Assembly: GCA_043811795.1 (NCBI GenBank) | Contig: JBDRMV010000116.1 | Coordinates: forward strand, 1-33,919 | Direction of reading: 5' to 3' | DNA length: 33,919 nt | Origin: a bacterium | GTDB lineage: Bacteria > CG03 | Shown: piece by piece, positions 3,450 through 24,091 of the stretch | Position numbering within the stretch: the stretch's first letter is position 1 | Layout: every line of letters starts with the position of its first letter | Program-made: the position numbers and the translations under genes | The notes under the pieces: model-generated | The model's input: only the letters and a program-made list of their open reading frames with translations | Database searches by the model: none | What the model was told of the DNA's origin: nothing

Positions 3450-3640
3450 GGAGCGTGAAGCGTGAAGAGAAAAGAGTGATGAGTAATGAGGGAAGAGTGA
3501 AGAATATGGAAAATAAAAAATTGAAACGATTTATTTTTCACACTGTACACTTCACATTTAACACTTCGCGCTTTGCACTTCGCGCTTTACACTTTACTCT
3601 TTACACTTTGCTCTTTACACTTTGCTCTTTATACGTCACG
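3446..3640. repeat. Heptamer repeat pair: purine (GTGAAGA-like, 3446-3503) and complementary pyrimidine (CTTTACA/CTTTGCT, ~3537-3640)
   Basis: Read directly from the sequence; the pyrimidine arm encodes the signal peptide h-region. Confidence 0.8.
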
Positions 3641-7100: not shown

Positions 7101-7104
7101 GAAC

Positions 7105-9312
7105 GTGAAGAGGGAAGAGGGAGGAGGGAAGAACAAGAAATTAAATCGGGAAAAGTTTGAAATTTGTTGTTTCCGCTTTATTCTTTATTCTTTACTCTTT
7201 GCTCTTTACTCTTTACTCTTTACGGTTTCCGCTGACTTTGAAGACCTCGGATGGGGTGTCGCTTCCGCCGGCCTTTCCAACTCCGTGATGTTTTCAAAAA
7301 AGATTCCTGCCCTGATTTCCATAAATCCCGCCGCATCTTCCTTTACTAAAATGCCGGCGGTGTGTGTTGAATACGAGAATCTTTATCCTAATCTTTCCGA
7401 CGGCAGTAAACTTACGAGAAACATTATCACTTATTCGCAGCAGCTTGAGTCCGCGGGTTTCGGCGCCGGCCTTGAAAATTTCACTCTTGACGGCCTTTAC
7501 ACGGAAAGGATTATTCTTGTGAATTATTCACAAAGGTTAAAAAACGAATTATTCTGGGGCTTGAATTTCCGCCACCTCCAGAAAAAATACGGCAGAGATG
7601 ATTATACGGATAATGCGATTGGTCCAGGTGGTGTGGTCTATCAGCCCGCCAAACCGGACCCGCTCTTCAACAACAACGGTTTCAAGAAGAACGGCTACAC
7701 GTTTGACGTCGGTGTTTCGAAACTCGTCAGGGATTTCTGGCACCTCTCGGGCGCCGTTTCCTATCTGACAAGTCCTGATGTTTCTCTCGGCGGCGGGGAC
7801 AAAAGAAAACCTACTTTTACAATGGGCGCTTCTTTTGAGGACCGCCTTGTAACGGTCGGGAGCATATTTAGTTTTCACGACGGAGATTACAACTCCGGCA
7901 TTGGCTTTGAAAGGTCTTTGCCGGACAGGCCTTTTAAGGTAAGGGGAGGTCTTTCAATCGGGAACAGCCAGGTCCGGCTTTTGTCCGTCGGTTTCGGATA
8001 TGTGCATTCCGGCAGGTTTTTGGTGGATTATGCCTGGACGTATCCCCTTGTGGGTTTGAAAGAAACGGGCGGCCGGCACAGGGTTTCGCTTTCCATGTAT
8101 TTAAGGAAGGAAGAAGCGGAGAAGGAGGATAAAGTCGCCGCGCTTTCGGATTTGGAGCAGTATCTTGAGAAAGCCAGAGAGGCGTTTGCAAAAGAGGACT
8201 GGCTGACCGCGCTGTCCTACGGGAAAAAAGTTCTGGAACTTGAGCCCAAAAATGAGGAGGCGAACGAAATACTCTCAAAGTCCGTCGCTAATCTTCGCGA
8301 ACTTTCCAAACCGTTTATTACGGAGGGGTTTTATTTTATAGAAAAAGGCAAATTTAATATTGCCGAGGAAAAGTTCGACACTGCTCTTGAAATCAATCCC
8401 GAAGGCGACGACATAAAACAAATCTGCCTGAAAATTAAGAAAATAACAAGGATAATTCCGCAGGCGGCGGAGAAGGATAAAATTTCCCGTCTTTTAAGAA
8501 CGTCAGTGAATGCTTATATCAATGATGACGTTATGCTTGCTTTGAATTCCGCATTGTATGTTTCTCAGATTGATTTCACCGGCATTGGTTCGAAGTTCCG
8601 GGACCTCATGAAGAGCGAGTATCCTTCCCAGTACCAGCAGATTGCGATTGTCGCAGGGATGAATCTTGTCGAGCAGAAACTTTATGCTTCTTTGAAAAAC
8701 ATATATAATGCAAGATATGACCTGGCGATAATGGACTGCGATGATGTCCTTAAACTTGAGCCCGAAAATGTTCTGGCTATGACCCGGCTGGGTTCCGCTT
8801 ATTACGCTCTCGGTAACAAGGCAAAGGCGGTCAGCGTCTGGCAAAAGGCGCTTGAATACGAGCCGGATAACAAAGACATTCTGGATTTTCTCGGGATGTC
8901 GGGCGGGGCGATAAAGGATGTCTATGAAAAGAAAAAGGAATCGGAGTCCGCGGCGGAAAAGACGGTGAAGGACTCCTACCTGCGCGGCATCGCGGCTATG
9001 AAGAGAGGAGAAATTGAAAAAGCGAAAACGCTTTTTGAAAAAGCGGTTTCGATAAATGTCACTGACGGAGCATCGCTGGATTATCAGAAGAAGTCCTCTG
9101 CCAAACTCAGCGAGTGCGAGAAACAATTGGAAAAGAAGAGCGGGCAGGACATGAATATGATGAAAGTTTACTTCGGCAGCGGAATGTCGTATTATAAAAA
9201 CGGCGAATACGGAAAAGCGGTGGACGAGTTTGAGAAAGTTCTGAAAATCAAACCGGACCATCCGCAGTCAAAGAAAATGATTGACTTATGCCGCCAAAAA
9301 ATGAAAAAATAG
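7105..9312 (+). CDS. Second PorP/SprF-like beta-barrel fused to a long TPR array
   Basis: Signal ending TVSA; DFEDLGWG...INPAA; shares GRDDYTDNAI with the first barrel; last strand RHRVSLSMYL followed by ~400 aa of TPR-like helices. GTG 7105 chosen to avoid overlap with the CTD gene. Confidence 0.75.
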   Translation: MKREEGGGKNKKLNREKFEICCFRFILYSLLFALYSLLFTVSADFEDLGWGVASAGLSNSVMFSKKIPALISINPAASSFTKMPAVCVEYENLYPNLSDGSKLTRNIITYSQQLESAGFGAGLENFTLDGLYTERIILVNYSQRLKNELFWGLNFRHLQKKYGRDDYTDNAIGPGGVVYQPAKPDPLFNNNGFKKNGYTFDVGVSKLVRDFWHLSGAVSYLTSPDVSLGGGDKRKPTFTMGASFEDRLVTVGSIFSFHDGDYNSGIGFERSLPDRPFKVRGGLSIGNSQVRLLSVGFGYVHSGRFLVDYAWTYPLVGLKETGGRHRVSLSMYLRKEEAEKEDKVAALSDLEQYLEKAREAFAKEDWLTALSYGKKVLELEPKNEEANEILSKSVANLRELSKPFITEGFYFIEKGKFNIAEEKFDTALEINPEGDDIKQICLKIKKITRIIPQAAEKDKISRLLRTSVNAYINDDVMLALNSALYVSQIDFTGIGSKFRDLMKSEYPSQYQQIAIVAGMNLVEQKLYASLKNIYNARYDLAIMDCDDVLKLEPENVLAMTRLGSAYYALGNKAKAVSVWQKALEYEPDNKDILDFLGMSGGAIKDVYEKKKESESAAEKTVKDSYLRGIAAMKRGEIEKAKTLFEKAVSINVTDGASLDYQKKSSAKLSECEKQLEKKSGQDMNMMKVYFGSGMSYYKNGEYGKAVDEFEKVLKIKPDHPQSKKMIDLCRQKMKK
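7175..7223 (+). repeat. Seven TCTTTAC-like heptamers encoding the signal peptide h-region
   Basis: gctttat-tctttat-tctttac-tctttgc-tctttac-tctttac-tctttac; purine counterpart at ~7105-7132. Confidence 0.9.
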
Positions 9313-9341
9313 ACCGGAAGTGAATATGAAAATGAAATAAT

Positions 9342-9571
9342 ATGAAACGTTCATGCCGGCAAGCCGTCACAAATTATGAAATGTAAATATATATGTTGTA
9401 GCATGCGAGCTTGCTCGCAAGATGAAAGCAAGCTTTCATGCTACAATGCGGAAATGAAAGCAAGCTTTCATGCTACAATGCGGAAATGAAAGCAAGCTTT
9501 CATGCTACATTGATGAGCAGTAATAGGGGTATTTACAGATGAAACGTTCATGCCGGCAAGCCGTCACAAAT
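9342..9571 (+). repeat. 33-bp exact direct repeats (9342-9374, 9539-9571) bracketing a REP cluster
   Basis: atgaaacgttcatgccggcaagccgtcacaaat occurs twice. Confidence 0.9.
9398..9509. repeat. GTAG-family REP doublet (REPIN-like) with tandem amplification of one arm
   Basis: GTAGCATGCGAGCTTGCTCGC (9398-9418), then three inverted copies in 32-bp units atgaaagcaagctttcatgctacaatgcggaa (9422, 9454, partial 9486). Confidence 0.8.
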
Positions 9572-9585
9572 GGGAATGAAAATCT

Positions 9586-9628
9586 AATCCCCCATTCCCC
9601 CTTTACAAAAGGGGGACAGAGGGGGATT
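9586..9628. repeat. Nested C5/G5 palindrome
   Basis: aatccccc-attccccctttacaaaagggggacaga-gggggatt. Confidence 0.7.
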
Positions 9629-9646
9629 TTTGGAATCTATTTACGG

Positions 9647-11032
9647 ATGAAAAAAAGCAGGAACAAAATCCACTTTTTGCGTTTTTATCTTTTTACCTTT
9701 TTGTTTTTTTGCGGTTTTACTTTTTCTTTCGCGTCGGTTCCGGATACCTCGGTCATTGAAAAGCAGGTTTCTTCTGTTCTTCAGAATGTTTTCAACATCA
9801 GGCAGTTTTCCGTTTCCGTAAGAATTGATGATTATGTAGAGATTATCAACATGGGCAAGGATAAGATGAATATTCTGCCGGGGGTCCCGATTGAGGAAAA
9901 GCTGATGGGCGCTCCGTCAAAACAGCTGGTCCAAAAATACAGGTTTTTGATAACGGTCGTTCTTCCGAGGAACGTTACGCTTGAAATGGAGCAGAGGGTC
10001 GAGCGTCTTTTGAAGGTCTGTTTGAGTTTAAAAGAAACCGATTCCCTGAAGATATTGAGAGAAGAATTTGTCAGCGCTCCGCCGGCCCCCCCCGCGGCAG
10101 AGGCGGAAGCGGTTTCTCCTCTTGCCGGTTTCGGGTTCAATGTTTTGAAATATTTTTCAAATCCCTCTAATATTCTGCTGGTAGCGGTTGTTTTAATAAT
10201 GTTTATTTTTCTTTTCGGGCCTCTGCGGTCTTTTATGAGATATGCGGCGACTTATTTTGCGAATGTTTCGCAAAAGGCGTCTCCTGAAACTCTGGAACTC
10301 GGCACCGGCGCTGTAAGGGGAAATCCCCTTGGGCCCGTCAATCTTCTCACTTCGCCCGAAGCGAAAGAGGCGAGCGGCGAAACAGCGGACGTCCCTTTTT
10401 CTTTTGTAAATGAAAAAAATATCTCAAACCTTGCTTTTCTCCTGCGTGACGAGGACTCGGAAAAAATCGCAAACATCGTAGGTTTCTTCAAGGAGCCGCT
10501 TATAGAAAATTTCGTCAGTTGTTTTCCCGAAGAAAAACAGTCGGATATAATGAGTTTCCTGGTGTATAAGAAGGAATTATCTTCGGATGGCATCAGGGGG
10601 CTGGAGCAGGAGATAAAGGAAAGGATTGATTACGTTTCGGGAGGGAAAGAGCGGCTGCTGAGGATGCTTGAGAATTCTTCCCGGCAGGTCCAGGAGCAGT
10701 TCCTGCAGCACATTGCCGACGAGGATCCCGTTCTCGCTACGGAACTGAGGAATTCAATCTTCCATTTTGAAGATCTTGCAAGGCAGGAAACATCCGTCGT
10801 TCAGACAGTCCTGAGGTTTGTTAATACGCGCGCGCTTGCGCAGGCGCTGCAGTTTTCCGACCCGGAAGTAAAGGATAGAATTTTCTCTATACTTTCGGAG
10901 GGCGCGCGGGATATTGTAACGGAGGAGCTTGAACTGTTGCCGGAGAATCAGACAGCTTCCCTGCGTGAGCAGAAGAATATCGTTGTCGTGGTAAGACGGC
11001 TGAAGGATGCCGGAACGATAGAACTCGGTTAA
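9647..11032 (+). CDS. FliF(RBM3)-like periplasmic domain + TM + FliG middle/C-terminal domain fusion
   Basis: Signal ending FSFA; IEKQVSSVLQNVF...FSVSVRID and RFLITVVL...EQRVERLLK...DSLKILREEF resemble FliF-C; TM NILLVAVVLIMFIFLF; PFSFV...LAFLLRDE (FliG-M); SGGKERL...IFHFEDL...VLRFV...LAQAL...RIFSILS...EQKNIVVVVRRLKDAGTIEL (FliG-C). The FliG part is high confidence, the FliF part moderate. Confidence 0.75.
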   Translation: MKKSRNKIHFLRFYLFTFLFFCGFTFSFASVPDTSVIEKQVSSVLQNVFNIRQFSVSVRIDDYVEIINMGKDKMNILPGVPIEEKLMGAPSKQLVQKYRFLITVVLPRNVTLEMEQRVERLLKVCLSLKETDSLKILREEFVSAPPAPPAAEAEAVSPLAGFGFNVLKYFSNPSNILLVAVVLIMFIFLFGPLRSFMRYAATYFANVSQKASPETLELGTGAVRGNPLGPVNLLTSPEAKEASGETADVPFSFVNEKNISNLAFLLRDEDSEKIANIVGFFKEPLIENFVSCFPEEKQSDIMSFLVYKKELSSDGIRGLEQEIKERIDYVSGGKERLLRMLENSSRQVQEQFLQHIADEDPVLATELRNSIFHFEDLARQETSVVQTVLRFVNTRALAQALQFSDPEVKDRIFSILSEGARDIVTEELELLPENQTASLREQKNIVVVVRRLKDAGTIELG

Positions 11033-11054
11033 AAATAGTGATTAGAAGAAATAT

Positions 11055-11219
11055 GGCGAGCGGTTTGTTGGCTCGGCATTGCCTTCCCACGCTTGAGGGT
11101 GGCTCGCTCCGCAGTCCTGCGGGGAGAAAGCAGAGACCCTCGGACTGACGGGCTTGTCAGGCAACGCCGTGCCTCCTGCGGAGATGTCGGTGAGCGTCCC
11201 CGCTGGCCAAACCGCGAGC
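11055..11219. other. GC-rich multi-stem structured intergenic element upstream of motA
   Basis: Outer stem gcggtttg/caaaccgc; cggcattgcct (11074-11084) pairs with aggcaacgccg (11159-11169); inner hairpin ctccgcag-tc-ctgcgggg. Confidence 0.5.
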
Positions 11220-11241
11220 AATTCGGTTGAGGTGAAATAAT

Positions 11242-11997
11242 ATGGATTTGATGACAATTTTGGGTCTTCTGGTGGGCGTGGCCGCGGTCTGGTTCGTTCT
11301 CGCTTCGGGCGGTATTATGGGCATGCTTTTTAATATTAACGCCGCGATTCTCGTCTTCGGAGGCGTTTTAGGAGCGACACTGATAACCTACCCCGGGCGC
11401 CTGATAAAAAGAATCCCGAAAGGCGTTTGGCTTATGTTTTTTCCGCTGCGAATTGATTTGCCGAGCGACATTATAAAGGTCTTTGAGACCTGTTCAAAAA
11501 AAATTCACAAAGAAGGGATAAGCACGGGTCTGCTTGAAATTATTCCGTCAAGGAACAAATTTTTTGTAAAGGCGATAAATTTCCTTGTGGACGGGTTTGA
11601 AGATGATTTTATAAGAGAAACAATGGAAAACGAAATTGATAATTTCAAAAAAAGACACAATCAGGCGGCGGATGTTTTTAAGTCGATGGGAGCTTACGCG
11701 CCGATTTTCGGCCTTCTCGGGACGCTTATCGGCGTTGTTCAGGTCTTGCAGAACCTGACCGACCCGGCGAGCATGGGCTCTTCAATGGCTATCGCCATCA
11801 CGACGACGTTTTACGGGATTTTTTCGACGAACTTTATTTTCCTGCCGATTGCAGGGAAACTTTCCGTTCAGACAAACAGGGAAACATTAATAAAAGAATT
11901 AGTCATAGAAGGAACCCTCGGCCTGAAGAAAGGCGAAATACCTTCTATTCTGAGACATCGGCTTCAGTCGTTCCTTGCCGATTATGAAAAAAAATAA
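11242..11997 (+). CDS. motA: Stator A subunit (MotA/PomA/MotP family)
   Basis: MDLMTILGL..., VFGGVLGATL, VDG, APIFGLLGTLIG, GSSMAIAITTTFYG, LPIAGKL, IEG; ~250 aa; gaggtg RBS. Confidence 0.92.
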   Translation: MDLMTILGLLVGVAAVWFVLASGGIMGMLFNINAAILVFGGVLGATLITYPGRLIKRIPKGVWLMFFPLRIDLPSDIIKVFETCSKKIHKEGISTGLLEIIPSRNKFFVKAINFLVDGFEDDFIRETMENEIDNFKKRHNQAADVFKSMGAYAPIFGLLGTLIGVVQVLQNLTDPASMGSSMAIAITTTFYGIFSTNFIFLPIAGKLSVQTNRETLIKELVIEGTLGLKKGEIPSILRHRLQSFLADYEKK

Positions 11998-12655
11998 ACC
12001 CGGCCCTGCGGGTCGCATCAAACAGCCGGAAAAACCGAAAGAAGGATCTCCTGTTTGGCTCACGATTTACTCCGACCTTATGACTAATCTGATGCTTTTT
12101 TTTCTTATGCTTTACGGGATTACCAGGATGAGCGTCGAAACAAAATCAACAATTCTTGAATCCCTCGCAATGCAGTTCAAGAATCCCGAGAAGCAGAAAG
12201 CCATTATGAAATCGTACGAAAAGACTGCCGCCGACATTGAAAAGTTTATGGTTAACGTCCGTGAAAATCCTGTCGTGGAAGAGGTGCTTGCGGAGCAGTC
12301 GGGGTACAAAATTCTTCTAAAAGCGCCCGTCCTTTTTCATTCGGCGCGTGCTCAAATCAGGGATGAATCAAAAATTCAGCTTTTAACGCTTGCGCAGTTT
12401 CTCGCCGCAATTCCGAATACGGTCGAGATTATCGGGCACACGGATGACATCCCCGTAACGGGAACGAAGTGGAAAAACAATTGGGAACTTTCTCTGGCAA
12501 GAGCCGAAAGCGTGAGGAATTTTCTCGTGTCTCAGGGGATAAAAAAGGAAAAATTCTGTATTGCGGGGTATGGTTCCAAGAGGCCTATTTGCCCGAACGA
12601 TAGCCAGGAAAACCGCCGCCGCAACAGGAGAATAGAAATAATTGTTTTGAAATAA
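11984..12655 (+). CDS. motB: Stator B subunit (MotB/PomB) with OmpA-like peptidoglycan-binding domain
   Basis: WLTIYSDLMTNLMLFF with the essential Asp (gac 12074-12076); GHTDD, NWELSLARA, NRRIEI; overlaps the motA stop. Confidence 0.92.
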   Translation: MKKNKPGPAGRIKQPEKPKEGSPVWLTIYSDLMTNLMLFFLMLYGITRMSVETKSTILESLAMQFKNPEKQKAIMKSYEKTAADIEKFMVNVRENPVVEEVLAEQSGYKILLKAPVLFHSARAQIRDESKIQLLTLAQFLAAIPNTVEIIGHTDDIPVTGTKWKNNWELSLARAESVRNFLVSQGIKKEKFCIAGYGSKRPICPNDSQENRRRNRRIEIIVLK

Positions 12656-12755
12656 TGGAACGCGCGCATCTGCGTAATTTAAATGAACCCTGATAGGAAT
12701 TGTATAAAAAATATTCGTATAATAGAAACCGCAATGATAAATAAAATAAAGGAAT

Positions 12756-12898
12756 AGGCGTATGCACATGAATCAAGTTGGTATATTAAACAGGGAAAAT
12801 CGGGTCACCTCTATTTTTTCTTACGATACAAAAGTAAAAAATAGAAGTGACCCATTTTCGCATTATAAGGCGATTACTGGAATCAAGTGCATACGCCT
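12756..12898. mobile_element. MITE-like element with terminal inverted repeats and target-site duplication
   Basis: TIR aggcgtatgcac/gtgcatacgcct; flanking direct repeat ataaaggaat at 12746-12755 and 12899-12908; internal IR gggtcacctctatttttt/aaaaaatagaagtgaccc. Confidence 0.8.
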
Positions 12899-12918
12899 AT
12901 AAAGGAATTTCCAACAGG

Positions 12919-14457
12919 GTGAACATAAAGAGGAGAATCATTTTAACGGCGGTTCTGCCGGTCGCCGGCGTTTTGATTGTTTCGCTTATAGCGGGAGATT
13001 TTTTCACGGGCTCTTTTGAAAAAAAATGGATAAACGCTCAACTTGAAAAAAGATACGAGAAAGTTGAAGTCATTTTCGACAGACATTTTTCAATTCTGCG
13101 GTCGCCGGAAAAGGAAATATTCACCGCTCTTGTAATGAAGATGCAGTCATGGGGGGAACTGAACAAATTTTTTATCCGTTTTTCGCCCCTTTATCCCCAA
13201 CTGGAGAAGATTTCAGTCTCCCGCGGAGATGACAATATCGCAGGGATTTCAAAACTTTCCGTAAATTCATTCGGGAATTTTCCGGTGAATGAAAAAACAA
13301 ATCTCAGCGATATCTTCCAGGTGGGCGGCATGTCTTATACGGCGTTTAAAATTGAAGGCGAAGACGGCTACGAAATTTCCGGAATTATAGGGCTTTCTTC
13401 TCTTTTTGAAAAAGCGGCAGGGTTTTCTTTCAGTCCCGGCGGTTCGGTAAAAATTTATTCCAGGGCTCCGAATTCCGAAGCGTCCGTCGGCGCTGCAAGG
13501 TCTTTCCCGCTGCTCAAAGGTCTGTGGTCCGTTGAATTCACGGATGATTTTACGGCCGTTTATAAGATGAGATCTAATTTCAGAAATATTTTTATATTGT
13601 TTGCCGCCGCGGTATTTTTTCTGATGTATATTATTTCGGTATCTTCCGCGCGCAGGATATCTTTCCGGCTGGCGGCCCTTCGCGGGGACGCTAATATATC
13701 CGAAAGCGAAGATGAAATATCCGTTATTTCAAAACAATTTAAGGAACTTCGCAAGACGCAGAACGAACTCCGCCGGCAGATAAGTTTGCAGGACGCCGTC
13801 GGCATCCTCGGCAAGAATGTTTCCATGATAGGCCATGAATTAAGAAATCCGCTGGCGGCGATAAAGAACGCGCAGTATTTTATTTCGTCGCAGTTGCCTG
13901 ATGAAATAAAAAAAGGTCTGGTGGGGAAACATCTGCAGATAATAAAAAACGAGATAAAATTAATTTCGTCAATGGTTGAGGATTTGCTGACCCTTTCAAG
14001 AGTTAAGCCGCCCGTGTACGCTGAATGCGACGTAAACGCGCTCATCAACGAGTCGGTCGATTTATTCGCGGCGGACACCCAGCTTATTGACTTTATTGTA
14101 AAACCCGGGAGAATTTCAAAAGTGCCGGCGGACGCTTCGGAGATAAAGCAGGTTTTCCTGAACATCATAAGAAATTCCTGCGAGGCGATTACGCCGCCCG
14201 GGGAAATAAAAATAGAAATTGGAGAACAGGAAAATTTTGTAAAAATCAAATTTACCGATACCGGCTGCGGGATACCGCCGGACAAGCAGGAAGAAATATG
14301 GAAACCCTTTTTCTCGACCAAGAGTTCCGGTATGGGCTTCGGGCTTTCAACCGTAAAAAGAATCGTGGAGGAAAGGCACAAGGGCAAGGCGGAGATTAAA
14401 AGCCTGCCCGGGAAGGGTACCGAAATAACGATTTATCTGCCGCAAAAGCAGGAATAA
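12919..14457 (+). CDS. Membrane sensor histidine kinase (HisKA-HATPase)
   Basis: Two TMs around a periplasmic domain; H-box GHELRNPL, N-box QVFLNIIRNS, DTGCGI, PFFSTK, GMGFGL. Start uncertain; GTG 12919 lies outside the MITE. Confidence 0.9.
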   Translation: MNIKRRIILTAVLPVAGVLIVSLIAGDFFTGSFEKKWINAQLEKRYEKVEVIFDRHFSILRSPEKEIFTALVMKMQSWGELNKFFIRFSPLYPQLEKISVSRGDDNIAGISKLSVNSFGNFPVNEKTNLSDIFQVGGMSYTAFKIEGEDGYEISGIIGLSSLFEKAAGFSFSPGGSVKIYSRAPNSEASVGAARSFPLLKGLWSVEFTDDFTAVYKMRSNFRNIFILFAAAVFFLMYIISVSSARRISFRLAALRGDANISESEDEISVISKQFKELRKTQNELRRQISLQDAVGILGKNVSMIGHELRNPLAAIKNAQYFISSQLPDEIKKGLVGKHLQIIKNEIKLISSMVEDLLTLSRVKPPVYAECDVNALINESVDLFAADTQLIDFIVKPGRISKVPADASEIKQVFLNIIRNSCEAITPPGEIKIEIGEQENFVKIKFTDTGCGIPPDKQEEIWKPFFSTKSSGMGFGLSTVKRIVEERHKGKAEIKSLPGKGTEITIYLPQKQE

Positions 14458-14638
14458 GTATGCACGTGCCAACCAACAATCTTTTCACCTTCTGGGGGGT
14501 GACAAGCGACGAGTGTCCGCCGGCGGCGGATGAGAGGAGCACAATCAGGGGGGGAAATCCCCCCTATTGAATCAAGCATCCGGGAATTACTTGTGTCCGT
14601 AAGGGTACAGGCGAGTGAGTAAGTATAACGGAGGGGCA

Positions 14639-15013
14639 ATGGATAAAAAAAAGATATTAATTGTTGACGACGATTTCAGTGTGCGGGAAACGCTCGGGGA
14701 TATTCTGCGTTCCTGCTCTTATGAGGTTTTTGAGGCGGCCACCGGCGCCGAGGCGGCTAAACAGGTTGAGCTGGAGGAATTCGATTGCGTAATTGTTGAT
14801 TTGCGCCTGCCGGATGCGACCGGACATGAAGTCATAGAGAAAATCTCCGGTAGAGTAGAAAAAAACAAAATTATTATCATCACGGGATACGCTTCGTCCG
14901 AAGTGCTTTCAAAAGCGCTGCTTGATGCGGAGTATTTTCTGCTTTTGAAACCCGTTACGCCGGAGCAATTATTGGCGGTTGTCCGGAAAATTGCAACCGG
15001 CGGAAAAAAATAA
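14639..15013 (+). CDS. Single-domain response regulator (CheY-like receiver)
   Basis: ILIVDDD, VDLRLPD, IITGY, LLKP; ggagg RBS; no output domain. Confidence 0.9.
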   Translation: MDKKKILIVDDDFSVRETLGDILRSCSYEVFEAATGAEAAKQVELEEFDCVIVDLRLPDATGHEVIEKISGRVEKNKIIIITGYASSEVLSKALLDAEYFLLLKPVTPEQLLAVVRKIATGGKK

Positions 15014-15014
15014 A

Positions 15015-15800
15015 ATGGCTGAAGAAGCAAATTGGAATGTTCCATACGGCAATTTAATGACGATTCTTATGATATTTTTTCTGCTCCTTTACGCTTTTAC
15101 GTTTCTCACGGGCAACGTCAATTACGAAAGAGTCGTCGCTTCGCTTTCCGCCGGTTTCGGAAAAACCACGCCCTTTAAGGAGGTTGCTCTCGCGGAATAC
15201 CTTGAAGATTACTTTTCAAAGAAACAGGGTTTTCTCAGAAAACTTCAGATTGATGCCGACAGAATAAAACTTATTTTCAACATACCGATTTTTTTCAAAA
15301 AAGGGAGCACTGAAATTAAGCCCGCGGCGGTCAAAATTTTGGATGATATCTGTCTGGTGATGCTGGACATACCTAATAACATTATCATAGAGGGTTATTC
15401 GACCGAGGAAGCGGGGCAGAATGAGATGCTTATTTCAGCAGGCAGGGCTTTGGGAATCGGGAAGTTTTTCATTGACAAAGGTATCGACCCGTACAGAATA
15501 GTAATCAAAGGGTGGGGGAGCAGCCGTCCGTTTGCCACCGAATCCGACAGAAAAAACAACATCCTCAACAACAGGGTGGAAATAAGCATTCAGCGCGCCG
15601 TCTCTATCGCAATGCCCCCGACAAGCGAGAAATTACAGAGGATGAAGGAACTCCATTTTTACGGCAATTATTACTACGGGCAGGGGGATATTAAAAAGGC
15701 GGAGGAATATTTCGAGAAAATTCTTGAAATCGACCCCGCTCACTGGAAAGCGAAACAAATGATAAGAAAAATCAAAAAACAAAAAAGGGGTCAGCTCTGA
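15015..15800 (+). CDS. Atypical MotB paralog (Asp->Asn, degenerate OmpA domain, C-terminal TPR)
   Basis: WNVPYGNLMTILMIFF; IEGYST in place of GHTD; ISAGRA; NNRVEI; C-terminal GNYYYGQGDIKKAEEYFEKILEIDPAHWKAK. Confidence 0.8.
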   Translation: MAEEANWNVPYGNLMTILMIFFLLLYAFTFLTGNVNYERVVASLSAGFGKTTPFKEVALAEYLEDYFSKKQGFLRKLQIDADRIKLIFNIPIFFKKGSTEIKPAAVKILDDICLVMLDIPNNIIIEGYSTEEAGQNEMLISAGRALGIGKFFIDKGIDPYRIVIKGWGSSRPFATESDRKNNILNNRVEISIQRAVSIAMPPTSEKLQRMKELHFYGNYYYGQGDIKKAEEYFEKILEIDPAHWKAKQMIRKIKKQKRGQL

Positions 15801-15842
15801 TTTTTTTAATAAGCTGCCTGTGGAAAAAATAGAACTGACCCC
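15787..15842. repeat. GGGGTCAG...CTGACCCC palindromic doublet spanning the gene junction
   Basis: ggggtcagctctgattttttt / aaaaaatagaactgacccc; same core as the IR inside the 12756-12898 MITE. Confidence 0.7.
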
Positions 15843-17319
15843 ATTTTTTCAAATTAATTATAAAAAATTCGGGCTGATAGTTATATTAGCGGTTGCTGCG
15901 GTTTTCTACGCATTGAACCTCAACCTCTATCAGGTGGGGCACATCAACGACGATGCCTACTATGTGAATGCGTCGAGGTGGCTTGCGGGAACCCAGAACG
16001 TCCAGAAACAACTCGGTTTGAGGTCTCTTGGTTTTCCCGTTTTACTCGCGCCTGTCGCGGCATTGTTTCCGGAAAATAATTTTCCGTTCAAGGCGGTTGC
16101 AGCCGGCTTTTATCTTGCGGCCGCCGCCCTGCTTTTTTTTCTGTTTGCGGAAATTCTTGACAAAGAAAAACTGTTGATTTTAACGGCGCTGACGGCGCTG
16201 AATCCGCTGGTCGTCCGTCTCAGCGGCACCGTGATGAGCGAAGGGGCTTTTCTTTTTTTCACAGTCCTTTCCCTTTACCTGCTGGAGAAATGTCTTCAGG
16301 AAGATTTCTCTCTCAAGAGAATTTTTCTAACGGGTTTGTCTGTTTTTTACCTTTCGTTTATCAGACCGGAAGGTTCTGTTTTTTTTATTGCTGTTTTAAT
16401 TTATCTTGCCGTTAAAAGAAGATGGAAAACATCTCTTTATCTGACGTTTTTTTTCCTAATTCTCTTGTGCCCGCTGCTTCTGAATGTTTTCAAACTCGGC
16501 GGGAGCGCCGACAGATACTTTACCGAGTGGTCGTATTGTTTTTTCAGGGGTCACGCTCTTAATCTTATTTTTAGCAATGCGGTTTTTTATTTGAAGGAGT
16601 TTGTTTCGCTTTTCGGGCTTACGGAGGAAATCCGGCTTTCTGCGGGAATTCTTTATTTTGCTCTTGCGGGCGGTATTCTTTTCTTTTGCGGGTTTGGCTT
16701 TTTGATTTGTCCTTCGGGACATACAGCAGGTATTTTAAGGGTTTATATTACACTTTATATTCTGCTCCATATTGTATGGCCGGCCAGGGAAAGCAGGTTT
16801 CTGCTCGGTATAACGCCGTTTGCCGTTTTATTTCTTATTTACGGCCTTGCCGCCGCCGGCAGGAGAGTGATGCTTGCGGCTGTTGCGGTGATTTTGATTT
16901 CATACATTTATCAGGATGTTTTCTTGTGCGGGAAGAAGTTTGACTGGGTAAGTCATGAGACGTTCGGATACGTGAGGGATAAATTTCCGGCGCGGGCGGT
17001 TTTTATTGCGGAGGCGCCGTCGCCGTTTTTCCTCCGGACGGGAAGGAAGGCGTTGCCTCTGTTTCATAGCGCGTCGGCGGCCGATTTCTTTTTTGATTTT
17101 TTGAATAGCGGAGCCGACTACATTATTCTTTTTGATAAAAAAAGTACGGCCCTTTATAAATTCCCGACAATAATCAGCGCCGGAATAGAAAAGACGAGAA
17201 AGTTTGTTATGGACAAGAGGAGGTTCGAGCCCGTTTACGTTAATTCCGAGGAGCGCGCCGTCATTTTCAGGGCAAAAGATGATTTCAAGAGGACGTTTGT
17301 TCATGCCTGCAGTAGATGA
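15820..17319 (+). CDS. GT-C fold glycosyltransferase (ArnT/PMT-like)
   Basis: Polytopic; NDDAYYVNA after TM1; GFPVLLAP, VMSE, IRPEG, RFLL motifs. Confidence 0.75.
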   Translation: MEKIELTPFFQINYKKFGLIVILAVAAVFYALNLNLYQVGHINDDAYYVNASRWLAGTQNVQKQLGLRSLGFPVLLAPVAALFPENNFPFKAVAAGFYLAAAALLFFLFAEILDKEKLLILTALTALNPLVVRLSGTVMSEGAFLFFTVLSLYLLEKCLQEDFSLKRIFLTGLSVFYLSFIRPEGSVFFIAVLIYLAVKRRWKTSLYLTFFFLILLCPLLLNVFKLGGSADRYFTEWSYCFFRGHALNLIFSNAVFYLKEFVSLFGLTEEIRLSAGILYFALAGGILFFCGFGFLICPSGHTAGILRVYITLYILLHIVWPARESRFLLGITPFAVLFLIYGLAAAGRRVMLAAVAVILISYIYQDVFLCGKKFDWVSHETFGYVRDKFPARAVFIAEAPSPFFLRTGRKALPLFHSASAADFFFDFLNSGADYIILFDKKSTALYKFPTIISAGIEKTRKFVMDKRRFEPVYVNSEERAVIFRAKDDFKRTFVHACSR

Positions 17320-19157
17320 AAAAAATTAAACCCGGATTCATATTGTTTGTCATTGTCGCTGCCGCTGCGGTTTTTTATATATTAAACCTTGATTTTTATC
17401 CGATAGGGTATTTCAATGACGATGCTTATTATATAAATGCAGCCAGATGGTTTGCAGGAACACAGATAATACAAAAATTTCTCACCAGCTCCTCGCTGGG
17501 TTTTTCCGTACTGCTTATACCGGTTGCCCGTCTTTTTCCGGAAGTTAATTTCCCGTTCCGCCTGCCGTCCCTTCTCTTTTCTCTCGGCACGCTTATCCTT
17601 TTATATTTTTTCTTAAGGAAAACTCTTGGTAAAAAAATGACTCTGATATTAATATTGCTGACTGCATTTAATCCATGGTTTGTTCTGTTAAGCGGTAGTG
17701 TAATGTCCGAGGCGGCGTTTCTTTTCCTGAGTATTTTATCGTTATATCTTTTTGAAAAATATATGGATAAAAGCAAATTTTCATACGCAGGAATTTTCTT
17801 TATTGCTTTAATTCTTTCTTTTCTTTCATTCGTAAGATCGGAGGGTTTTCTTCTCTTTTTCTGTATTTTGGCATATTTCATCATATCAAAATCCTACAGG
17901 GAAGCCCTTTACCTGACGTTTTTTTTCATTGTCTTAATTTTGCCGGTAAGCAGGTTTAATGTTGAAAACAGTATTGATAGGTATATATTCGGATGGTCAT
18001 ATCCTGTCTTTTCCCTGGATTTTTTAAAACTATTAATCAGGAGTTTTATCTATTATCTGAAGAATCTGACATATACGGTTCTTCTGACGGATTTTATAAG
18101 AACGCAAGCCGGCAATTTTGAAATCATTCCTGCAATCGCCTTTTTCTTCGTTTATATTGCCGGTTTTTTTTACGCTTATTTTAAGAAAATAAATCCGGCA
18201 GTAAAAATATATTTAATTCTTTATCTGGTTTTCCACATTATCTGGCAGGCTCTCTGCGGGCGATATCTAATCGGCGTTCTTCCGTTTTTGATACTTTTGT
18301 TTTTAAGCGGTGTGAAACATTTTGGAGAAAAAGCGGTTTTTGCTGTCAGCGGTATTATTTTTACTCTTTTTATAACACAGGATGTTCTTATGATAAGGCA
18401 GAAGAGTCCGCCTTTAGATCCTGAAACTTTTTCCTTTATAAGAGAAAATACTTCCCCCTCTGCAATTTTTGTTTCAAACTATTCTTCCCGGTTTTTTCTT
18501 TATGCCGGAAAAAAAGTATATAAATTACCTTCTCATAAATCTTGTGATGATTATTTTAATGCAATTTTAAAAACCGGAGCCAAATATATCGTCCTTTTTG
18601 ACGCAAGTAATTTAATAACTAATTATGATTTTCCAAACGCAGCATTCGGCCCGAATCGCAGGACGGAGAAATTTGTAAAAGATAAAAAGAGGTTTGAAGT
18701 TTTTTATGTGAATCCCCGGGAAAGAGCCGTTATTTTCAAGGTTAAGGAAGATTTTAAGAAAAAATTCCTTTCTTCGTGCAGGTTAGCGTCAAGAGGCACT
18801 GAAATGCTGTGGCAGGGAAAGCATGGAGAGGCAGAGATGTATTTTCTGGATGCAAAAAAAGAAAACCCGTATATACCGGCGGTGATAAACAATTTTGCTT
18901 TGCTGTACATTGAGCAGAAACGCCTTGATGAAGCCGAAATAATTTTACTGGAAGGGATTAAAAATACGGAAAATTCCCCTATTCTTTATGCGCTGCTCGG
19001 TAAACTTTATAAATTGAAGGGTGATTCGGAGAACTCGGAAAAGAATTACATGAAAGCGGTTAAAATATCAAGGGAATTATATGACAGGGCATCGGAGAAA
19101 TTGGCGCTGGACGAATTGAATAATCTGCCGGTAATGAAAGAAGATGAAGAAAATTAA
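17316..19157 (+). CDS. GT-C fold glycosyltransferase paralog with C-terminal TPRs
   Basis: NDDAYYINA, VMSE, VRSEG; collinear with the previous gene plus a TPR tail (NNFALLYIEQKRLDEA, YALLGKLY). Confidence 0.75.
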   Translation: MKKIKPGFILFVIVAAAAVFYILNLDFYPIGYFNDDAYYINAARWFAGTQIIQKFLTSSSLGFSVLLIPVARLFPEVNFPFRLPSLLFSLGTLILLYFFLRKTLGKKMTLILILLTAFNPWFVLLSGSVMSEAAFLFLSILSLYLFEKYMDKSKFSYAGIFFIALILSFLSFVRSEGFLLFFCILAYFIISKSYREALYLTFFFIVLILPVSRFNVENSIDRYIFGWSYPVFSLDFLKLLIRSFIYYLKNLTYTVLLTDFIRTQAGNFEIIPAIAFFFVYIAGFFYAYFKKINPAVKIYLILYLVFHIIWQALCGRYLIGVLPFLILLFLSGVKHFGEKAVFAVSGIIFTLFITQDVLMIRQKSPPLDPETFSFIRENTSPSAIFVSNYSSRFFLYAGKKVYKLPSHKSCDDYFNAILKTGAKYIVLFDASNLITNYDFPNAAFGPNRRTEKFVKDKKRFEVFYVNPRERAVIFKVKEDFKKKFLSSCRLASRGTEMLWQGKHGEAEMYFLDAKKENPYIPAVINNFALLYIEQKRLDEAEIILLEGIKNTENSPILYALLGKLYKLKGDSENSEKNYMKAVKISRELYDRASEKLALDELNNLPVMKEDEEN

Positions 19158-19229: not shown

Positions 19230-19925
19230 TTGCTGATGCCTACGCGTAATGAGATTGAAGGGTTAAAGGAAATCATGCCGCGGGTCAAAAAAGAATGGAT
19301 AGACCAGATTATTGTTATAGATGCGAATTCTACCGATGGCACGATAGAATATGCCAGGGAACATAACTATACGCTGGTATTGGAGAAACGCCCGGGCGGG
19401 GTCAGGTATGCCCTGCCGGAAGTAATGGATAGGATAAAGGGAGACGTGGTTATAACTTTCAGCCCTGATGGGAACTGTATCCCGGAACTTATTCCCGATT
19501 TAATAAAAAAAATGGAGGAAGGGTATGATATGGTTATTGTTTCCCGTTATGCTGCAGGGGCGAAAAGCTATGACGACAGTATTATAACTGCTTTCGGGAA
19601 CTGGTTATTTACGACGTCCATTAATATACTTCACGGCGGCAGATATACTGATACGATGGGTATCTTCCGCGCTTATAAAGCGAACCTTTTCAGGGATTTG
19701 GAACTGGATAAAGACGGGGGCTATTCAATGGCAGAGAAAATATTTCGCATAAATGTGGGCTGGGAACCTCTTTTATCAGTCAGAGCCGCCAAGAGGGAAT
19801 TAAAGATTGCGGAAATTCCGGGCGATGAGCCTGCGAGGTCGGGCGGAAAGTCAAAATTGAGAATATTCAGGCACGGTGCGGCGCACCTTTTTCAGGTTTT
19901 TTGGGAGGTATTTTTCTGGCGGTAA
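19230..19925 (+). CDS. GT2 glycosyltransferase (Dpm1-like polyprenyl-phosphate sugar synthase)
   Basis: PTRNE, IIVIDANSTDGT, GYDMVIVSR, YTD...FRAY, EIP...R.GGKSKL; the true start may be ATA at 19218. Confidence 0.8.
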   Translation: MLMPTRNEIEGLKEIMPRVKKEWIDQIIVIDANSTDGTIEYAREHNYTLVLEKRPGGVRYALPEVMDRIKGDVVITFSPDGNCIPELIPDLIKKMEEGYDMVIVSRYAAGAKSYDDSIITAFGNWLFTTSINILHGGRYTDTMGIFRAYKANLFRDLELDKDGGYSMAEKIFRINVGWEPLLSVRAAKRELKIAEIPGDEPARSGGKSKLRIFRHGAAHLFQVFWEVFFWR

Positions 19926-19965: not shown

Positions 19966-20002
19966 ATGATGACTCAACTTGAGCAAAAAGGGGGTGAGTA
20001 AA

Positions 20003-20452
20003 ATGAAGAAGAAAGGTTTTACGCTGATTGAACTAATGATTGTCGTTGCAATTATCGGTATTTTATCGGCGGTTGCCATTCCAAGATTCGCCAGCATGAT
20101 TCAGAAAGCGAACGAGGCGGCATGCAAGGGAAACCTCGGAGCTATCAAGAGTGCCGTGTCTCTCTACTACGGCGATCAGGAAGGGCTGTATCCGCAGGAG
20201 GACTTTGACGTCACCAACAGCGCGTTTCTTCCCACCTACATCGCTGATATGCCCACTTGTAAGCCGGGAGACGGCACGAGCAGTGCTGCTACTCTAACTC
20301 AAACCGATGGCTCTGTCCCCATCGTGGCGACAGCGGCAGGCGGCTGGTGGTACAACATGGGCTCGACAAATCCCGGTGGAACTTATGCCGGTGATGTCCG
20401 CGTTAACTCAACGGCCACGGACACGAAGAATGTTTACCTTAGCGCGTGGTAA
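20003..20452 (+). CDS. Type IV (major) pilin
   Basis: MKKKG|FTLIELMIVVAIIGILSAVAIP class III signal with E5; own promoter and terminator; Thr/Ser-rich head. Confidence 0.9.
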   Translation: MKKKGFTLIELMIVVAIIGILSAVAIPRFASMIQKANEAACKGNLGAIKSAVSLYYGDQEGLYPQEDFDVTNSAFLPTYIADMPTCKPGDGTSSAATLTQTDGSVPIVATAAGGWWYNMGSTNPGGTYAGDVRVNSTATDTKNVYLSAW

Positions 20453-20583: not shown

Positions 20584-22563
20584 ATGATTAGTATCTCCCT
20601 TATCAGGTATTTATTGTTTTCTGTGCTTTTACTGGCGCCATTTTTTAACGGCTTGAAAGATACTCTTCCTCTTTTTATTTTTGAAACGGCGGTTTTTATC
20701 ATATTTTTTATGTTTGTAAAATTTTCTACTATTAAGAAAACTGCTCTTGATACGCCCATATTGCTATTTTTCACATTTATACTATTTTCTGCATTCACTA
20801 CTTATTATCTGAATTCATCGATAACCGTTATTTTTATGCTGATTTCATTCTGTCTTTTGTTTTATGTCACAGTATCCGTCTATGATGAACAGTTTCAAAA
20901 ATATTTTTATTACGGGTTCATTGCGGTTTCCTTCATAATTTCCGTAATTATACTGGTTCAGTTTATTTGCGGAAAGGCGCCGAAAGCAACTTTCCCCAAT
21001 CAAAACTTAGCAGCAGGTTATATTGCCTGTGCTGCAACATTTGTTTTTTCACTTCTGGTTTTTAATGCCGGAAATCTTAAATCAAAAATGGCGCTCTTTA
21101 TTTTTTACCTGTTTGCAATTGCAGCGACACATTCAAGGGGCGGACTTTTTGCTTTATTGTGCGGTATTGCTGTTGTATTTTTCTTGAAATTCAAAAAATG
21201 GGGGAGCGTAATTTTTATCGTAATGTTTCTGGTTGCCTTTATATCGATTCCAAAAAAGACGCTGATAAAGTTCGCTAAAATTGACAGCGGAGATGCTTAT
21301 GCGCTAAAACGAATTGCCGTATGGAAATCGGCGGTCGATATAATAAGAGAAAAACCAATTTCAGGAACAGGGCCGGGTAATTTTGAATTTTTATTTTACA
21401 AATACAATTTTCCTGCGGAGACCTCAATAACAAGATATGGGAAATCGGCGAGATTTGCGCATAATGAATTCCTGCAGATTGCCGCCGAAGGCGGGATTTT
21501 TACTTTTTTTGCTTTTATATGGATTGCTGCAATTATCTTCAAAAATGGTCTCAGAACCCCGTCAATAACTCTACCGGCTCTATCCGCGATAATAGGCCAT
21601 TCGCTTGTTGATTTCAATCTGCACCTTCCCGCCACAACAATTCTGACGATATTTCTGGCAGCCGATATTTTTTACGAAAAATCTGATAAAAACAGGAAGC
21701 TGAATCCGGGATATGTCAGGATAATTTTGATAACATTACTGGTTTTTAATTTGTTTAATTTTTTTTACAAGCCATTTGATGCCCAAAAATACAAAGGAAT
21801 TGCCGATAAACTTATACAGGAGAAACCCGAACAGGCACTCAAAATTTATGAAAAAGCGGCAAAATTTTCACCAAACGACTTTGAAATAAGACGAATTATG
21901 GGTGAATTATTTTATACAAAAGGCAGCAGAACCAAAGCGATTGAAAACCTTAAAATGTCAATTGAATTGAATCCCCATAGCCCTTTTTCCGTTATGTCTC
22001 TCGCTAAGGTTTATTATGATGCTGATGAATTTAATAAGGCAGCGTTTTACCTTCGTAAAGCAATAGATATTGAGCCGAACTATCTTTTAGCAAAATTTTT
22101 CTTCGCAAAAACAAATGAAAAACAGGGGAAAGTTGAACGAGCAGTGGAAGAATATAAAGATATTATTAAAATAAACAAAATTTTTGAGAACAGAACTTTT
22201 TCATCCAACTATGAAAAAACACTGTTTCGGATTGATATGTCCGTTGTTTATAATTCGCTGGGTTTTCTTTATATGAATAGCGGTGGATTCAGGAACGCTA
22301 TTTTCAATTACAATAAATCAATTGAAATAAACCCGTCAAATGCGGAAGCGCATTCAAATCTGGCTTCCGTTTATTATATCAAAAAGGACTATAAATCCGC
22401 GCTAAAACATGCCAATCTTTCTGCGCATTATGAAAGCGAAGAACCTTTGCGCTTAAAAAATCTCATTTTAATACACCGGAAACTTGGCAATAAAAAAGAA
22501 ATAGCGAAATTGAAAAAGAAAATGGAAAATCTTGAAAAAAGAAGATATGCCAAAGAGAAATAA
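20584..22563 (+). CDS. O-antigen-ligase (Wzy_C) family protein with TPRs; probable protein O-oligosaccharyltransferase
   Basis: TFPNQN, THSRGG, R..VW, GTGPGNF, AHNEFLQIAAEGG, HSLVDFNLH; C-terminal TPRs; lies directly after the pilin. Confidence 0.8.
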   Translation: MISISLIRYLLFSVLLLAPFFNGLKDTLPLFIFETAVFIIFFMFVKFSTIKKTALDTPILLFFTFILFSAFTTYYLNSSITVIFMLISFCLLFYVTVSVYDEQFQKYFYYGFIAVSFIISVIILVQFICGKAPKATFPNQNLAAGYIACAATFVFSLLVFNAGNLKSKMALFIFYLFAIAATHSRGGLFALLCGIAVVFFLKFKKWGSVIFIVMFLVAFISIPKKTLIKFAKIDSGDAYALKRIAVWKSAVDIIREKPISGTGPGNFEFLFYKYNFPAETSITRYGKSARFAHNEFLQIAAEGGIFTFFAFIWIAAIIFKNGLRTPSITLPALSAIIGHSLVDFNLHLPATTILTIFLAADIFYEKSDKNRKLNPGYVRIILITLLVFNLFNFFYKPFDAQKYKGIADKLIQEKPEQALKIYEKAAKFSPNDFEIRRIMGELFYTKGSRTKAIENLKMSIELNPHSPFSVMSLAKVYYDADEFNKAAFYLRKAIDIEPNYLLAKFFFAKTNEKQGKVERAVEEYKDIIKINKIFENRTFSSNYEKTLFRIDMSVVYNSLGFLYMNSGGFRNAIFNYNKSIEINPSNAEAHSNLASVYYIKKDYKSALKHANLSAHYESEEPLRLKNLILIHRKLGNKKEIAKLKKKMENLEKRRYAKEK

Positions 22564-23326: not shown

Positions 23327-24091
23327 ATGATTTTTTTTGTCTTTATCATCGGGCTTGTCTTCGGTTCGTTTGCGAATGTGCTTATTTATAGAATGCCCCT
23401 CGGGAAATCAGTCGTTTTGCCGCGGTCTTTCTGTCCCGCCTGCGCCGGAACAATTTTATGGTATGACAATATACCGCTCGTAAGTTTCATTCTCCTGAAA
23501 AGACGCTGCAGGTTCTGCGGAGCAAAGATTTCCGCGCAGTATCCGCTTGTAGAATTATTCACGGGGCTGGTTTTCGCGTGTATATTTTATTTTTTCGGTT
23601 TCACAACGACCGCTCTGATTCTGGTAATCATTTCTTTCCACACGATTGCAATTTCGCTCATTGATTTCAAGCACGGAATAATTCCGGACGAATTGAATCT
23701 GTCGCTTTTTGTTTTGGGGGTTATAATTCCGGGCCCGTTTTTTAGGGGGGCTTTCTGGAAAATGCCGCTTTATTCCGTTTCCGCCGGGCTTTCCGCCGGG
23801 CTCGTTCTGTTTCTGATAGCGGTTATTTTTTCGCGCCTTTTCAAGCAGGAAGCGATGGGTATGGGGGATGTGAAACTGATTGCCGCTCTTGCCGCTTTCA
23901 CGGGGTTTCCGTCGATATTCTGGCTGATTTTTCTTTCGTCGGTCTTCGGTTCGATTGTCGGTATCGTAGTAAAAATAATAAAGAGAGAGAAGGGTTTTAC
24001 CAAAATTGCATTCGGCCCATATCTTTGTCTCGCCGCGATTTTTTATGTTTTGTTCTCGGAGCATCTGCCGGCTCTTTTATTATTCGGATAA
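23327..24091 (+). CDS. pilD: Prepilin peptidase/N-methyltransferase
   Basis: GSFANVLIYRMP, RSFCPAC, CRFC, ID...IIPD, MGMGDVKL, FGPYL. Confidence 0.93.
   Translation: MIFFVFIIGLVFGSFANVLIYRMPLGKSVVLPRSFCPACAGTILWYDNIPLVSFILLKRRCRFCGAKISAQYPLVELFTGLVFACIFYFFGFTTTALILVIISFHTIAISLIDFKHGIIPDELNLSLFVLGVIIPGPFFRGAFWKMPLYSVSAGLSAGLVLFLIAVIFSRLFKQEAMGMGDVKLIAALAAFTGFPSIFWLIFLSSVFGSIVGIVVKIIKREKGFTKIAFGPYLCLAAIFYVLFSEHLPALLLFG

Follow-up and report, generated by a model that had tools for sequence, protein, structure and literature searches.

A conserved MotB paralogue without the channel aspartate in a putative non-flagellar rotary motor of a CG03 bacterium

The stretch of DNA analysed here, referred to as the window, comprises all 33,919 nucleotides of contig JBDRMV010000116.1 (assembly GCA_043811795.1) from a bacterium of the lineage CG03, and is contig C116 of a genome, G000, of 1.74 Mb in 161 contigs that is 92.6% complete. 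At positions 15015–15800, it encodes a second MotB protein, MotB2, in which the channel aspartate of MotB is replaced by asparagine, and the gene is found together with those for a canonical MotB (MotB1), a flagellar-type MotA and a FliG-like rotor protein. The conservation of an Asp-less MotB2 beside these partners in non-flagellated bacteria points to an undescribed, asymmetric, ion-driven rotary motor. We propose, as a reading that in our judgement has an even chance of being correct, that one MotA pentamer holds a heterodimer of MotB1 and MotB2 in which MotB2 is the partner that cannot be protonated, i.e., part of a 5:2 stator of flagellar type that serves a non-flagellar machine.

MotB2 carries asparagine at the channel-aspartate site

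The MotB2 gene and the parts of its product are located as follows:

15015–15800, + strand: MotB2 gene, 261 aa and stop codon; the ATG lies one base past the stop of the response-regulator gene
15051–15053, + strand: AAT codon for Asn13, where MotB has its channel Asp, within WNVPYGNLMT
15024–15107, + strand: transmembrane (TM) helix, model residues 4–31
15111–15155, + strand: plug-like helix, residues 33–47
15234–15593, + strand: OmpA-like/MotB C-domain fold, residues 74–193
15393–15404, + strand: GYST, replacing the GHTD peptidoglycan-binding motif
15567–15575, + strand: NNR, replacing NRR
15627–15794, + strand: three-helix TPR tail, residues 205–260, pLDDT about 97

The open reading frame (ORF) is intact, and its product is of the MotB type, with a TM helix, a plug helix, an OmpA-like fold and a C-terminal tail of 1.5 TPRs. 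A preliminary description of this locus had pointed to the asparagine, the altered peptidoglycan motifs and the TPR, and the sequence reads as described there: MotB2 has WNVPYGNLMT where the equivalent region of MotB1 is WLTIYSDLMT, and MotB1 keeps both peptidoglycan motifs that are changed in MotB2. An alternative TTG start at 14979 is less likely than the ATG at 15015, since the N-termini of the orthologues align to the ATG. Matches to Pfam comprise MotB_plug (PF13677; E 1e-7, 31.8 bits versus a cut-off of 24, residues 4–45), OmpA (PF00691; E 2.6e-13, residues 93–181) and TPR_2 (E 4.6e-7, residues 213–243), and the scores against the NCBIfam equivalogs MotB, MotD and MotS are all far below cut-off, the best being MotD with 73 bits versus 283.

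In the AlphaFold2 model, which was built on 37 sequences and has a mean pLDDT of 83.5, the middle domain is placed by Foldseek on the periplasmic domains of PA0833, MotS, MotB and PomB (E 5e-10 to 1e-8); for the C-domain compared with MotS, MotB and PomB, the E-values are 1e-9 to 1e-8 and the TM-scores by target 0.67–0.85. Within the genome, the tail is most similar to the TPRs at the C-termini of PorV/PorQ-type barrels (33–44% identity over 36–54 aa, E 6e-7 to 4e-4), so that the resemblance to barrel tails claimed earlier holds, at the level of generic TPR likeness.

Conservation of MotB2 and selection on its gene

Full-length orthologues with 54–97% identity are present in eight of the nine other genomes of the same family, the ninth being 63% complete, and all nine family proteins (the eight orthologues and that of the window) keep both the asparagine in PYGNLMT and the TPR tail. 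Orthologues with Asp, or a mutation private to this genome, either of which the preliminary description would have taken as reason to dismiss the case, were not seen. The same applies to relaxed selection: the ratio of nonsynonymous to synonymous substitution rates (dN/dS; Nei–Gojobori, closer pairs) is 0.086 for G000–G001 and 0.113, 0.085, 0.082, 0.063 and 0.106 for the other pairs, a range of 0.06–0.11 that indicates purifying selection, compared with 0.10–0.20 for MotB1. By segment, the values for MotB2 are 0 to 0.07 in the TM and plug region, 0.08–0.23 in the OmpA-like domain and 0.06–0.19 in the TPR tail.

Mean pairwise identities were calculated from seven non-redundant family orthologues, with G001 and G008 excluded as near-copies, and amount to 0.96 for the TM segment (residues 7–33), 0.77 for the plug, 0.56 for the OmpA-like domain and 0.67 for the TPR. 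An identity of 0.96 means that the TM helix is under constraint on all its faces, which a location inside a pore would lead one to expect. The TM segment of MotB1 has a mean identity of 0.99, and the two TM segments of the FliG-like protein, used as a control in an overlapping family-level set of six sequences (the window, two family genomes and three metagenome loci), have 0.29 and 0.66. In the G006 orthologue (L047:3180–4058), the loop that leads to the degenerate NRR site is lengthened by about 23 residues through an in-frame insertion.

The asparagine codon was also checked in other sequence data. A contig from an independent metagenome assembly (run X3) is identical to the window over 15005–15082, codon included; runs X1 and X2 cover the codon as well, with nothing at 15051–15053 among the differences listed, and only X3 is counted here. 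Contigs from an RNA library (X4), 95–99% alike, cover 15021–15257 and 15316–15785, which is no proof of transcription. With the asparagine conserved, purifying selection on the gene and independent assemblies in agreement, a sequencing error, a private mutation or a decaying duplicate is ruled out for practical purposes.

An Asp-less MotB2 lineage across the phylum

The residue at the Asp site was surveyed in 16 of the phylum's 26 genomes and at 55 loci from metagenomes. In proteins of the MotB2 lineage, this residue is N, T, S or A and only rarely D, and no large hydrophobic and no basic residue was seen; in MotB1, D31, T34 and N35 are invariant (n = 32 sequences). Of the five MotB_plug genes of G000 itself, the window contains two, contig C78 a tandem pair and C123 one; the genome also has three flagellar-type MotA genes and two more genes of the MotA/ExbB family on C150 and C6. 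The gene order on C78 is FliG-like, MotA, MotB1 (Asp), a MotB2 paralogue with threonine (MotB2′, WKTPYGTMM) and then a 300-aa TPR protein, with a 4-base overlap between the MotB1 and MotB2′ genes. This Thr-type paralogue was found in 8/8 family genomes examined, and is followed by a TPR gene in all seven that can be assessed, the eighth ending at a contig edge. A TPR gene also follows TPR-less MotB2 in several metagenome loci, and such a separate TPR gene next to a TPR-less MotB2 suggests that the fusion in the window reflects a partnership between MotB2 and TPR. The third set of G000 (C123:7785–13420) has a single 340-aa MotB with Asp and a long insertion before its final NRRVD motif, and a 1229-aa protein between the FliG-like gene and MotA.

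In other genomes of the phylum, an Asp-type MotB1 and a second MotB come after MotA, and the second MotB has N (G012, G017, G023), S (G016), T (G019) or A (G011, G014). A search of 1.84 billion representative proteins returned 286 with E <= 1e-10, and the best full-length matches are mostly N, T or S types; two named members of the 90% cluster of one orthologue carry the NCBI record name "hypothetical protein [Elusimicrobia bacterium ...". In a FastTree phylogeny of 150 sequences of 190–320 aa with a recognisable TM motif (45 from genomes and 105 representatives), MotB1 forms a group of 42 with support 99, of which 41 have Asp. The MotB2-like sequences fall into two neighbouring groups that do not resolve as one clade, one of 42 sequences (N 20, T 11, D 11) and one of nine (N 5, S 2, T 1, A 1). 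The branches starred in the tree require at least three changes for N, and Asp has therefore been lost several times in MotB2-type proteins.

The aspartate of GHTD and the NRR motif have roles in peptidoglycan binding. In the window's family, GHTD and the first Arg of NRR are missing from all nine proteins, the variants being GYST, GFST, GFSG, GFSR, GFAG and GFAA (in general G[YF][SA]x) at the former and x[NDE]R at the latter, while R144 (the Arg of the LSxxRA motif) and R187 are kept; peptidoglycan binding by the window's MotB2 is thus probably impaired. A MotB2 type represented by metagenome locus L070 (P0002 cluster, 37% identical) likewise has Asn and a TPR tail, yet its EGHTDN, SNLELS..RA and NRRIE motifs are intact, which places the loss of Asp first, the gain of the TPR second and the decay of the peptidoglycan site last. 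There are also MotB2 lineages in which GHTD and NRR are intact and a TPR is absent, and these are still without Asp. The loss of the peptidoglycan motifs is a late and family-specific event, and the loss of Asp is a trait of the whole lineage.

These comparisons bear on the idea that MotB2 stays outside the MotA pore and acts as a free scaffold, i.e., a periplasmic linker anchored in the inner membrane that positions the stators relative to outer-membrane parts. Such a role, for which the stator-scaffold protein MotY and the TPR proteins PflA and PflB offer a comparison, would suit the degenerate peptidoglycan motif in the window's family and a TPR tail that resembles those of the barrels. A mere lipid anchor would be expected to drift, however, and MotB2 has a nearly invariant TM segment, a MotB_plug match and a plug helix. 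Since, in addition, the lineages that retain GHTD/NRR and have no TPR lack Asp all the same, we consider the scaffold reading improbable.

Linkage of MotB2 to MotB1 and a single MotA

The genes of the window that belong to the cluster, or are discussed together with it, are:

3446–5116, + strand: PorV/PorP-like barrel with TPR tail
6943–9312, + strand: 789-aa TPR protein, conserved 5′ of the FliG-like gene
9647–11032, + strand: FliF-RBM3-like periplasmic domain, TM segment and FliG middle and C-terminal (MC) domains; the ORF is open from 9539
11242–11997, + strand: flagellar-type MotA (PomA/MotP type), with no second MotA in the cluster
11984–12655, + strand: MotB1, canonical, with Asp31, GHTD and NRR
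12847–14457, + strand: membrane histidine kinase (HK), inserted between MotB1 and MotB2 in the window's family
14615–15013, + strand: single-domain CheY-like response regulator (RR)

HK-RR-MotB2 is present in 8/8 other family genomes, and the complete order MotA-MotB1-HK-RR-MotB2 is found on the same strand of one contig in five other family genomes, with split contigs consistent with it in two more. A search for related loci over genome contigs matched only a genome of the same genus. The 55 metagenome loci come from a scan for [VL]PYGNLMT and MIFFL[LVI]LY; the first of these patterns contains Asn and biases the N:D ratio of the loci, not the gene context or the adjacency to MotB1. Forty-two have a non-Asp MotB2 (34 N, 8 T), three have MotB1(Asp) with MotB2(Asp), and ten have a single MotB or are cut. 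An Asp-type MotB1 lies upstream on the same strand in 36 of the 42 non-Asp loci, directly adjacent in 31 and across HK-RR genes in five; in two more, an upstream MotB is present and cut by the contig end, two cannot be assessed (L072, L093), and two are without MotB1 (L070, L071).

The usual order in these loci is TPR protein, FliG-like, MotA, MotB1 and MotB2, followed by HK and several RR genes. Each cluster has one MotA, one MotB1 and one MotB2, and the MotB1 and MotB2 genes often overlap. A promoter and terminator scan of 9000–16200 gave 13 and 11 hits versus shuffled expectations of 8.6±2.7 and 10.7±3.2, and is uninformative with respect to operon structure.

A flagellar torque module without a flagellum

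The window MotA is a full-length protein of the flagellar type (E 1.2e-50 with solved MotA and 2e-42 with PomA; 1e-52 to 1e-56 with the NCBIfam MotP, PomA and MotA models, below their cut-offs). The FliG-like protein matches Pfam FliG_C (2e-23) and, weakly, FliG_M. In its model (pLDDT 71.6, pTM 0.34), of which the domain arrangement is unreliable, a signal or TM helix precedes an α-β-β-α-β periplasmic domain, and a TM helix then leads via a disordered linker to helices of the FliG type. Foldseek aligns the latter with FliG MC domains (E 3e-11 to 1e-8) and with FliG_C bound to MotAB (8ucs). In a separate match, the RBM3/collar region of the MS-ring protein FliF is found (E 4e-3 to 2e-2), followed in the list by SpoIIIAG (5wc3) and a needle-complex chain (2y9j_Y) with E 0.1–0.16; a sequence search of the PDB with the periplasmic domain gave nothing at E <= 10. 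As modelled, the product of 9647–11032 joins a short ring module of the FliF type to FliG MC. G000 has three such fusions (window 9647–11032; C78:4454–5848, – strand; C123:13420–15492, – strand), each beside a MotA/MotB set.

FliG_C is present in 21 of the 26 species genomes of the phylum and in all 14 of high quality. In none of the 26 does the flagellar export gate FHIPEP/FlhA score over its cut-off (there is one match of 18.7 bits), and G000, at the completeness given above, has no match. Because FlhA is absent, MotB2 and MotA do not form a flagellar stator, and the cluster is, judging from its gene content, a flagellar torque module without a flagellum.

Proposed role of MotB2 in an asymmetric stator

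In current models of 5:2 motors, the two B-subunit aspartates carry the ion in turns. Three features make a heterodimer the simplest reading of the present data, namely that the MotB2 TM segment is as constrained as that of MotB1, that the residues at the Asp site are small and neutral or polar, and that there is one MotA for each pair of MotB1 and MotB2. We infer that one MotA pentamer encloses a MotB1·MotB2 heterodimer, with MotB2 as an obligate B subunit, and that ions flow via one Asp only. MotB1 would provide the only ion-carrying Asp and the peptidoglycan anchor, and MotB2 the second TM segment and plug helix, with a small neutral polar residue, here Asn, occupying the second Asp site. 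This residue would pass the MotA interface without an ion, so that alternate steps are unpowered or the step is doubled. In the window's family, MotB2 may have traded peptidoglycan binding for a TPR tail that docks on TPR-bearing envelope parts, either the PorV-like barrels or the 789-aa TPR protein; MotB1 would then be anchored to the wall and MotB2 to outer-membrane parts. The stator is predicted to turn a ring of the FliF-RBM3/FliG-MC fusion under the control of the adjacent HK and CheY-like RR.

Several observations weigh against this arrangement. The E. coli MotB mutant D32N of Zhou et al. (1998) is reportedly inactive and dominant, in which case a dimer with one Asp need not work. Some lineages have Asp in MotB2 (L099, L100, L102). 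At L109 (374–2513), which is counted among the 42, three MotB genes stand in a row, an Asp-type MotB1, an Asn-type MotB2 and a near-duplicate of MotB2 with Asp, and such a triple set fits exchangeable subunits better than a fixed heterodimer. At L070 (1824–5648), the HK gene comes straight after MotA and MotB1 is missing; the 8.7 kb of this locus contain a single MotB, a divergently oriented Asn-type MotB2-TPR with intact GHTD/NRR. Finally, the N-terminus of the TPR-tailed MotB2 is short and acidic, so that the positive-inside rule does not fix its topology. An inverted topology of MotB2, suggested by the acidic N-terminal tail, was set aside, as the MotB2-TPR of L070 has an equally acidic N-terminal flank with intact GHTD/NRR.

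The loci L109, with N and D copies of MotB2 adjoining, and L070, with a MotA that has only an Asn-type MotB nearby, would also suit a brake or clutch, in which MotB2 homodimers and MotA form non-conducting units that compete with MotA5MotB1(2) for the FliG-like ring and lock or disengage it, the HK and RR setting their amount or activity. Asn commonly stands in for a permanently protonated Asp (PMC9389320), a single base separates the CheY-like RR gene from the MotB2 start, and the cluster has RR and HK genes beside it in the family genomes as well as at many metagenome loci. However, the genes lie on one strand, mostly overlapping or close together and with no clear internal terminator (the scan being at chance level), which leaves no obvious way to vary MotB2 relative to MotB1, and the repeated loss of Asp on the tree is easier to explain if this residue was simply dispensable. 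We therefore regard a brake as unlikely.

The asymmetric MotA5–MotB1–MotB2 stator was one of three options offered in the preliminary description, beside the brake or clutch and a linker of the PorE type, and is the best fit, given the 1:1:1 genes, the upstream MotB1(D) in most non-Asp loci and the constraint on the TM segment. That interpretation is partly supported as a whole; it overlooked the non-flagellar context, the FliF/FliG-fusion partner and the lateness and family specificity of the peptidoglycan-motif loss. A natural, strongly conserved stator with a non-protonatable second B subunit is a ready-made test of whether both aspartates are needed, and an axle with one Asp would show the effect on step size, torque or direction. 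If the heterodimer is correct, it would be a natural demonstration that a 5:2 motor can run on one ion-carrying Asp.

Type-IX-like outer-membrane parts and other neighbours

G000 has four PorV/PorQ-family barrels with C-terminal TPR tails over the NCBIfam cut-off and two below it, including that of the window, as well as six PorP/SprF matches. In 25 of the 26 phylum genomes, there is a frame of about 1700 aa that resembles SprA, of the type IX translocon family, in collinear pieces that are each below cut-off. It is located at C61:4361–7558 (L120–L123, L137) in G000, and also occurs on C93 of G004 and C141 of G008, in both of which it lies about 3.5 kb from MotB2. The models for GldL and GldM have no match in G000 and none in the control genomes either, so absence is not shown. 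The occurrence of flagellar-type MotA, MotB and a FliF/FliG rotor beside type-IX-like outer-membrane parts, with no flagellar export genes, suggests that a flagellar torque module is used for a purpose other than a flagellum. Tentatively, the whole machine could be a FliF-RBM3/FliG-MC ring that is spun by MotA5(MotB1·MotB2), a 5:2 motor with one Asp, and coupled through TPRs to PorV/PorQ-like barrels and an SprA-like translocon, which would make it a MotAB/FliG-driven counterpart of the GldLM-driven type IX secretion/gliding apparatus.

The window further contains a fn3 protein (1539–3449) with a weakly CHU_C-like or type IX secretion system (T9SS)-tail-like C-terminus, directly followed by the barrel at 3446–5116, a pair that recalls a type-B C-terminal-domain cargo with its PorP-like partner, the barrel being PorP/SprF- or PorV-like. 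A 126-aa ORF (6720–7100) that overlaps the start of the TPR gene has a C-terminus like that of the 1539–3449 protein and a weak Por_Secre_tail match (4.8e-4), and similar small ORFs precede the TPR gene in G001, G004, G007 and G016. On the 3′ side of MotB2, there is a run of envelope glycosylation genes (within 15820–19157, 19230–19925, 20584–22563 and 25135–27225) that encode two PMT_2-type glycosyltransferases, one with TPRs, a GT2 protein, a Wzy_C/O-antigen-ligase-like protein with TPRs and a YfhO-like protein. Among them are genes for a type IV pilin (19979–20452) and a prepilin peptidase (23327–24091). A 566-aa protein (30584–32284) has a partial GGDEF match (residues 62–116) followed by many HEAT repeats.

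Comparison with known systems

MotB2 shares with MotB, PomB and MotS the MotB_plug-type TM segment and plug, the OmpA-like C-domain and a gene next to a flagellar-type MotA. It differs from them by Asn in place of the channel Asp, by the loss of GHTD/NRR and by the added TPR tail, and the cluster differs by its second, canonical MotB and by the lack of any flagellar export gene found. MotB2 descends from MotB and would work in a similar way, but lacks three of its defining features: the Asp, the peptidoglycan residues and the flagellar context.

The gliding motor AglR-AglQ-AglS of Myxococcus xanthus also combines one A subunit with two different B paralogues, and by analogy the AglQ/AglS pair is the closest in logic to the arrangement of MotB2. 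One account indicates a predicted A5:B:B′ heteromer, AglR5QS, for Myxococcus (PMC11761067), and both AglQ and AglS are said to keep the conserved Asp (PMC9389320). Unlike MotB2, which has Asn and a MotA of the flagellar type, AglRQS is TolQ/R-type and is without OmpA-like domain, TPR or FliG partner.

PorE of the T9SS is a lipoprotein with N-terminal TPR, propeller, CRD and OmpA_C. PorE and MotB2 are both periplasmic proteins that unite a TPR with an OmpA-like domain, and the genome has PorV/PorQ-like barrels and an SprA-like protein. MotB2, however, begins with the MotB TM segment and plug instead of a lipoprotein signal, and its single TPR is C-terminal; a Pfam search found MotB_plug, OmpA and one C-terminal TPR only, with no propeller and no CRD. 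The linker analogy with PorE drawn in the preliminary description is therefore superficial. ExbD and TolR, with TonB and TolA, likewise belong to 5:2 motors, and there the output reaches the outer membrane through an additional TM protein, but TonB and TolA are not B-subunit paralogues, whereas the TM segment of MotB2 is homologous to that of MotB itself. The Zorya defence system ZorAB, which has a ZorA-type A subunit and ZorC/D partners, was considered and rejected, as neither MotA nor the FliG-like or TPR protein has a PADLOC match, and there is only a generic likeness between ZorB and MotB.

In the literature searched, which did not cover subscription journals and supplements, neither an Asp-less MotB paralogue nor a non-flagellar FliF/FliG fusion is described. 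In comparison with the systems above, MotB2 is best seen as a variant of the parts of a 5:2 motor, set in a rotary envelope machine that may itself be new.
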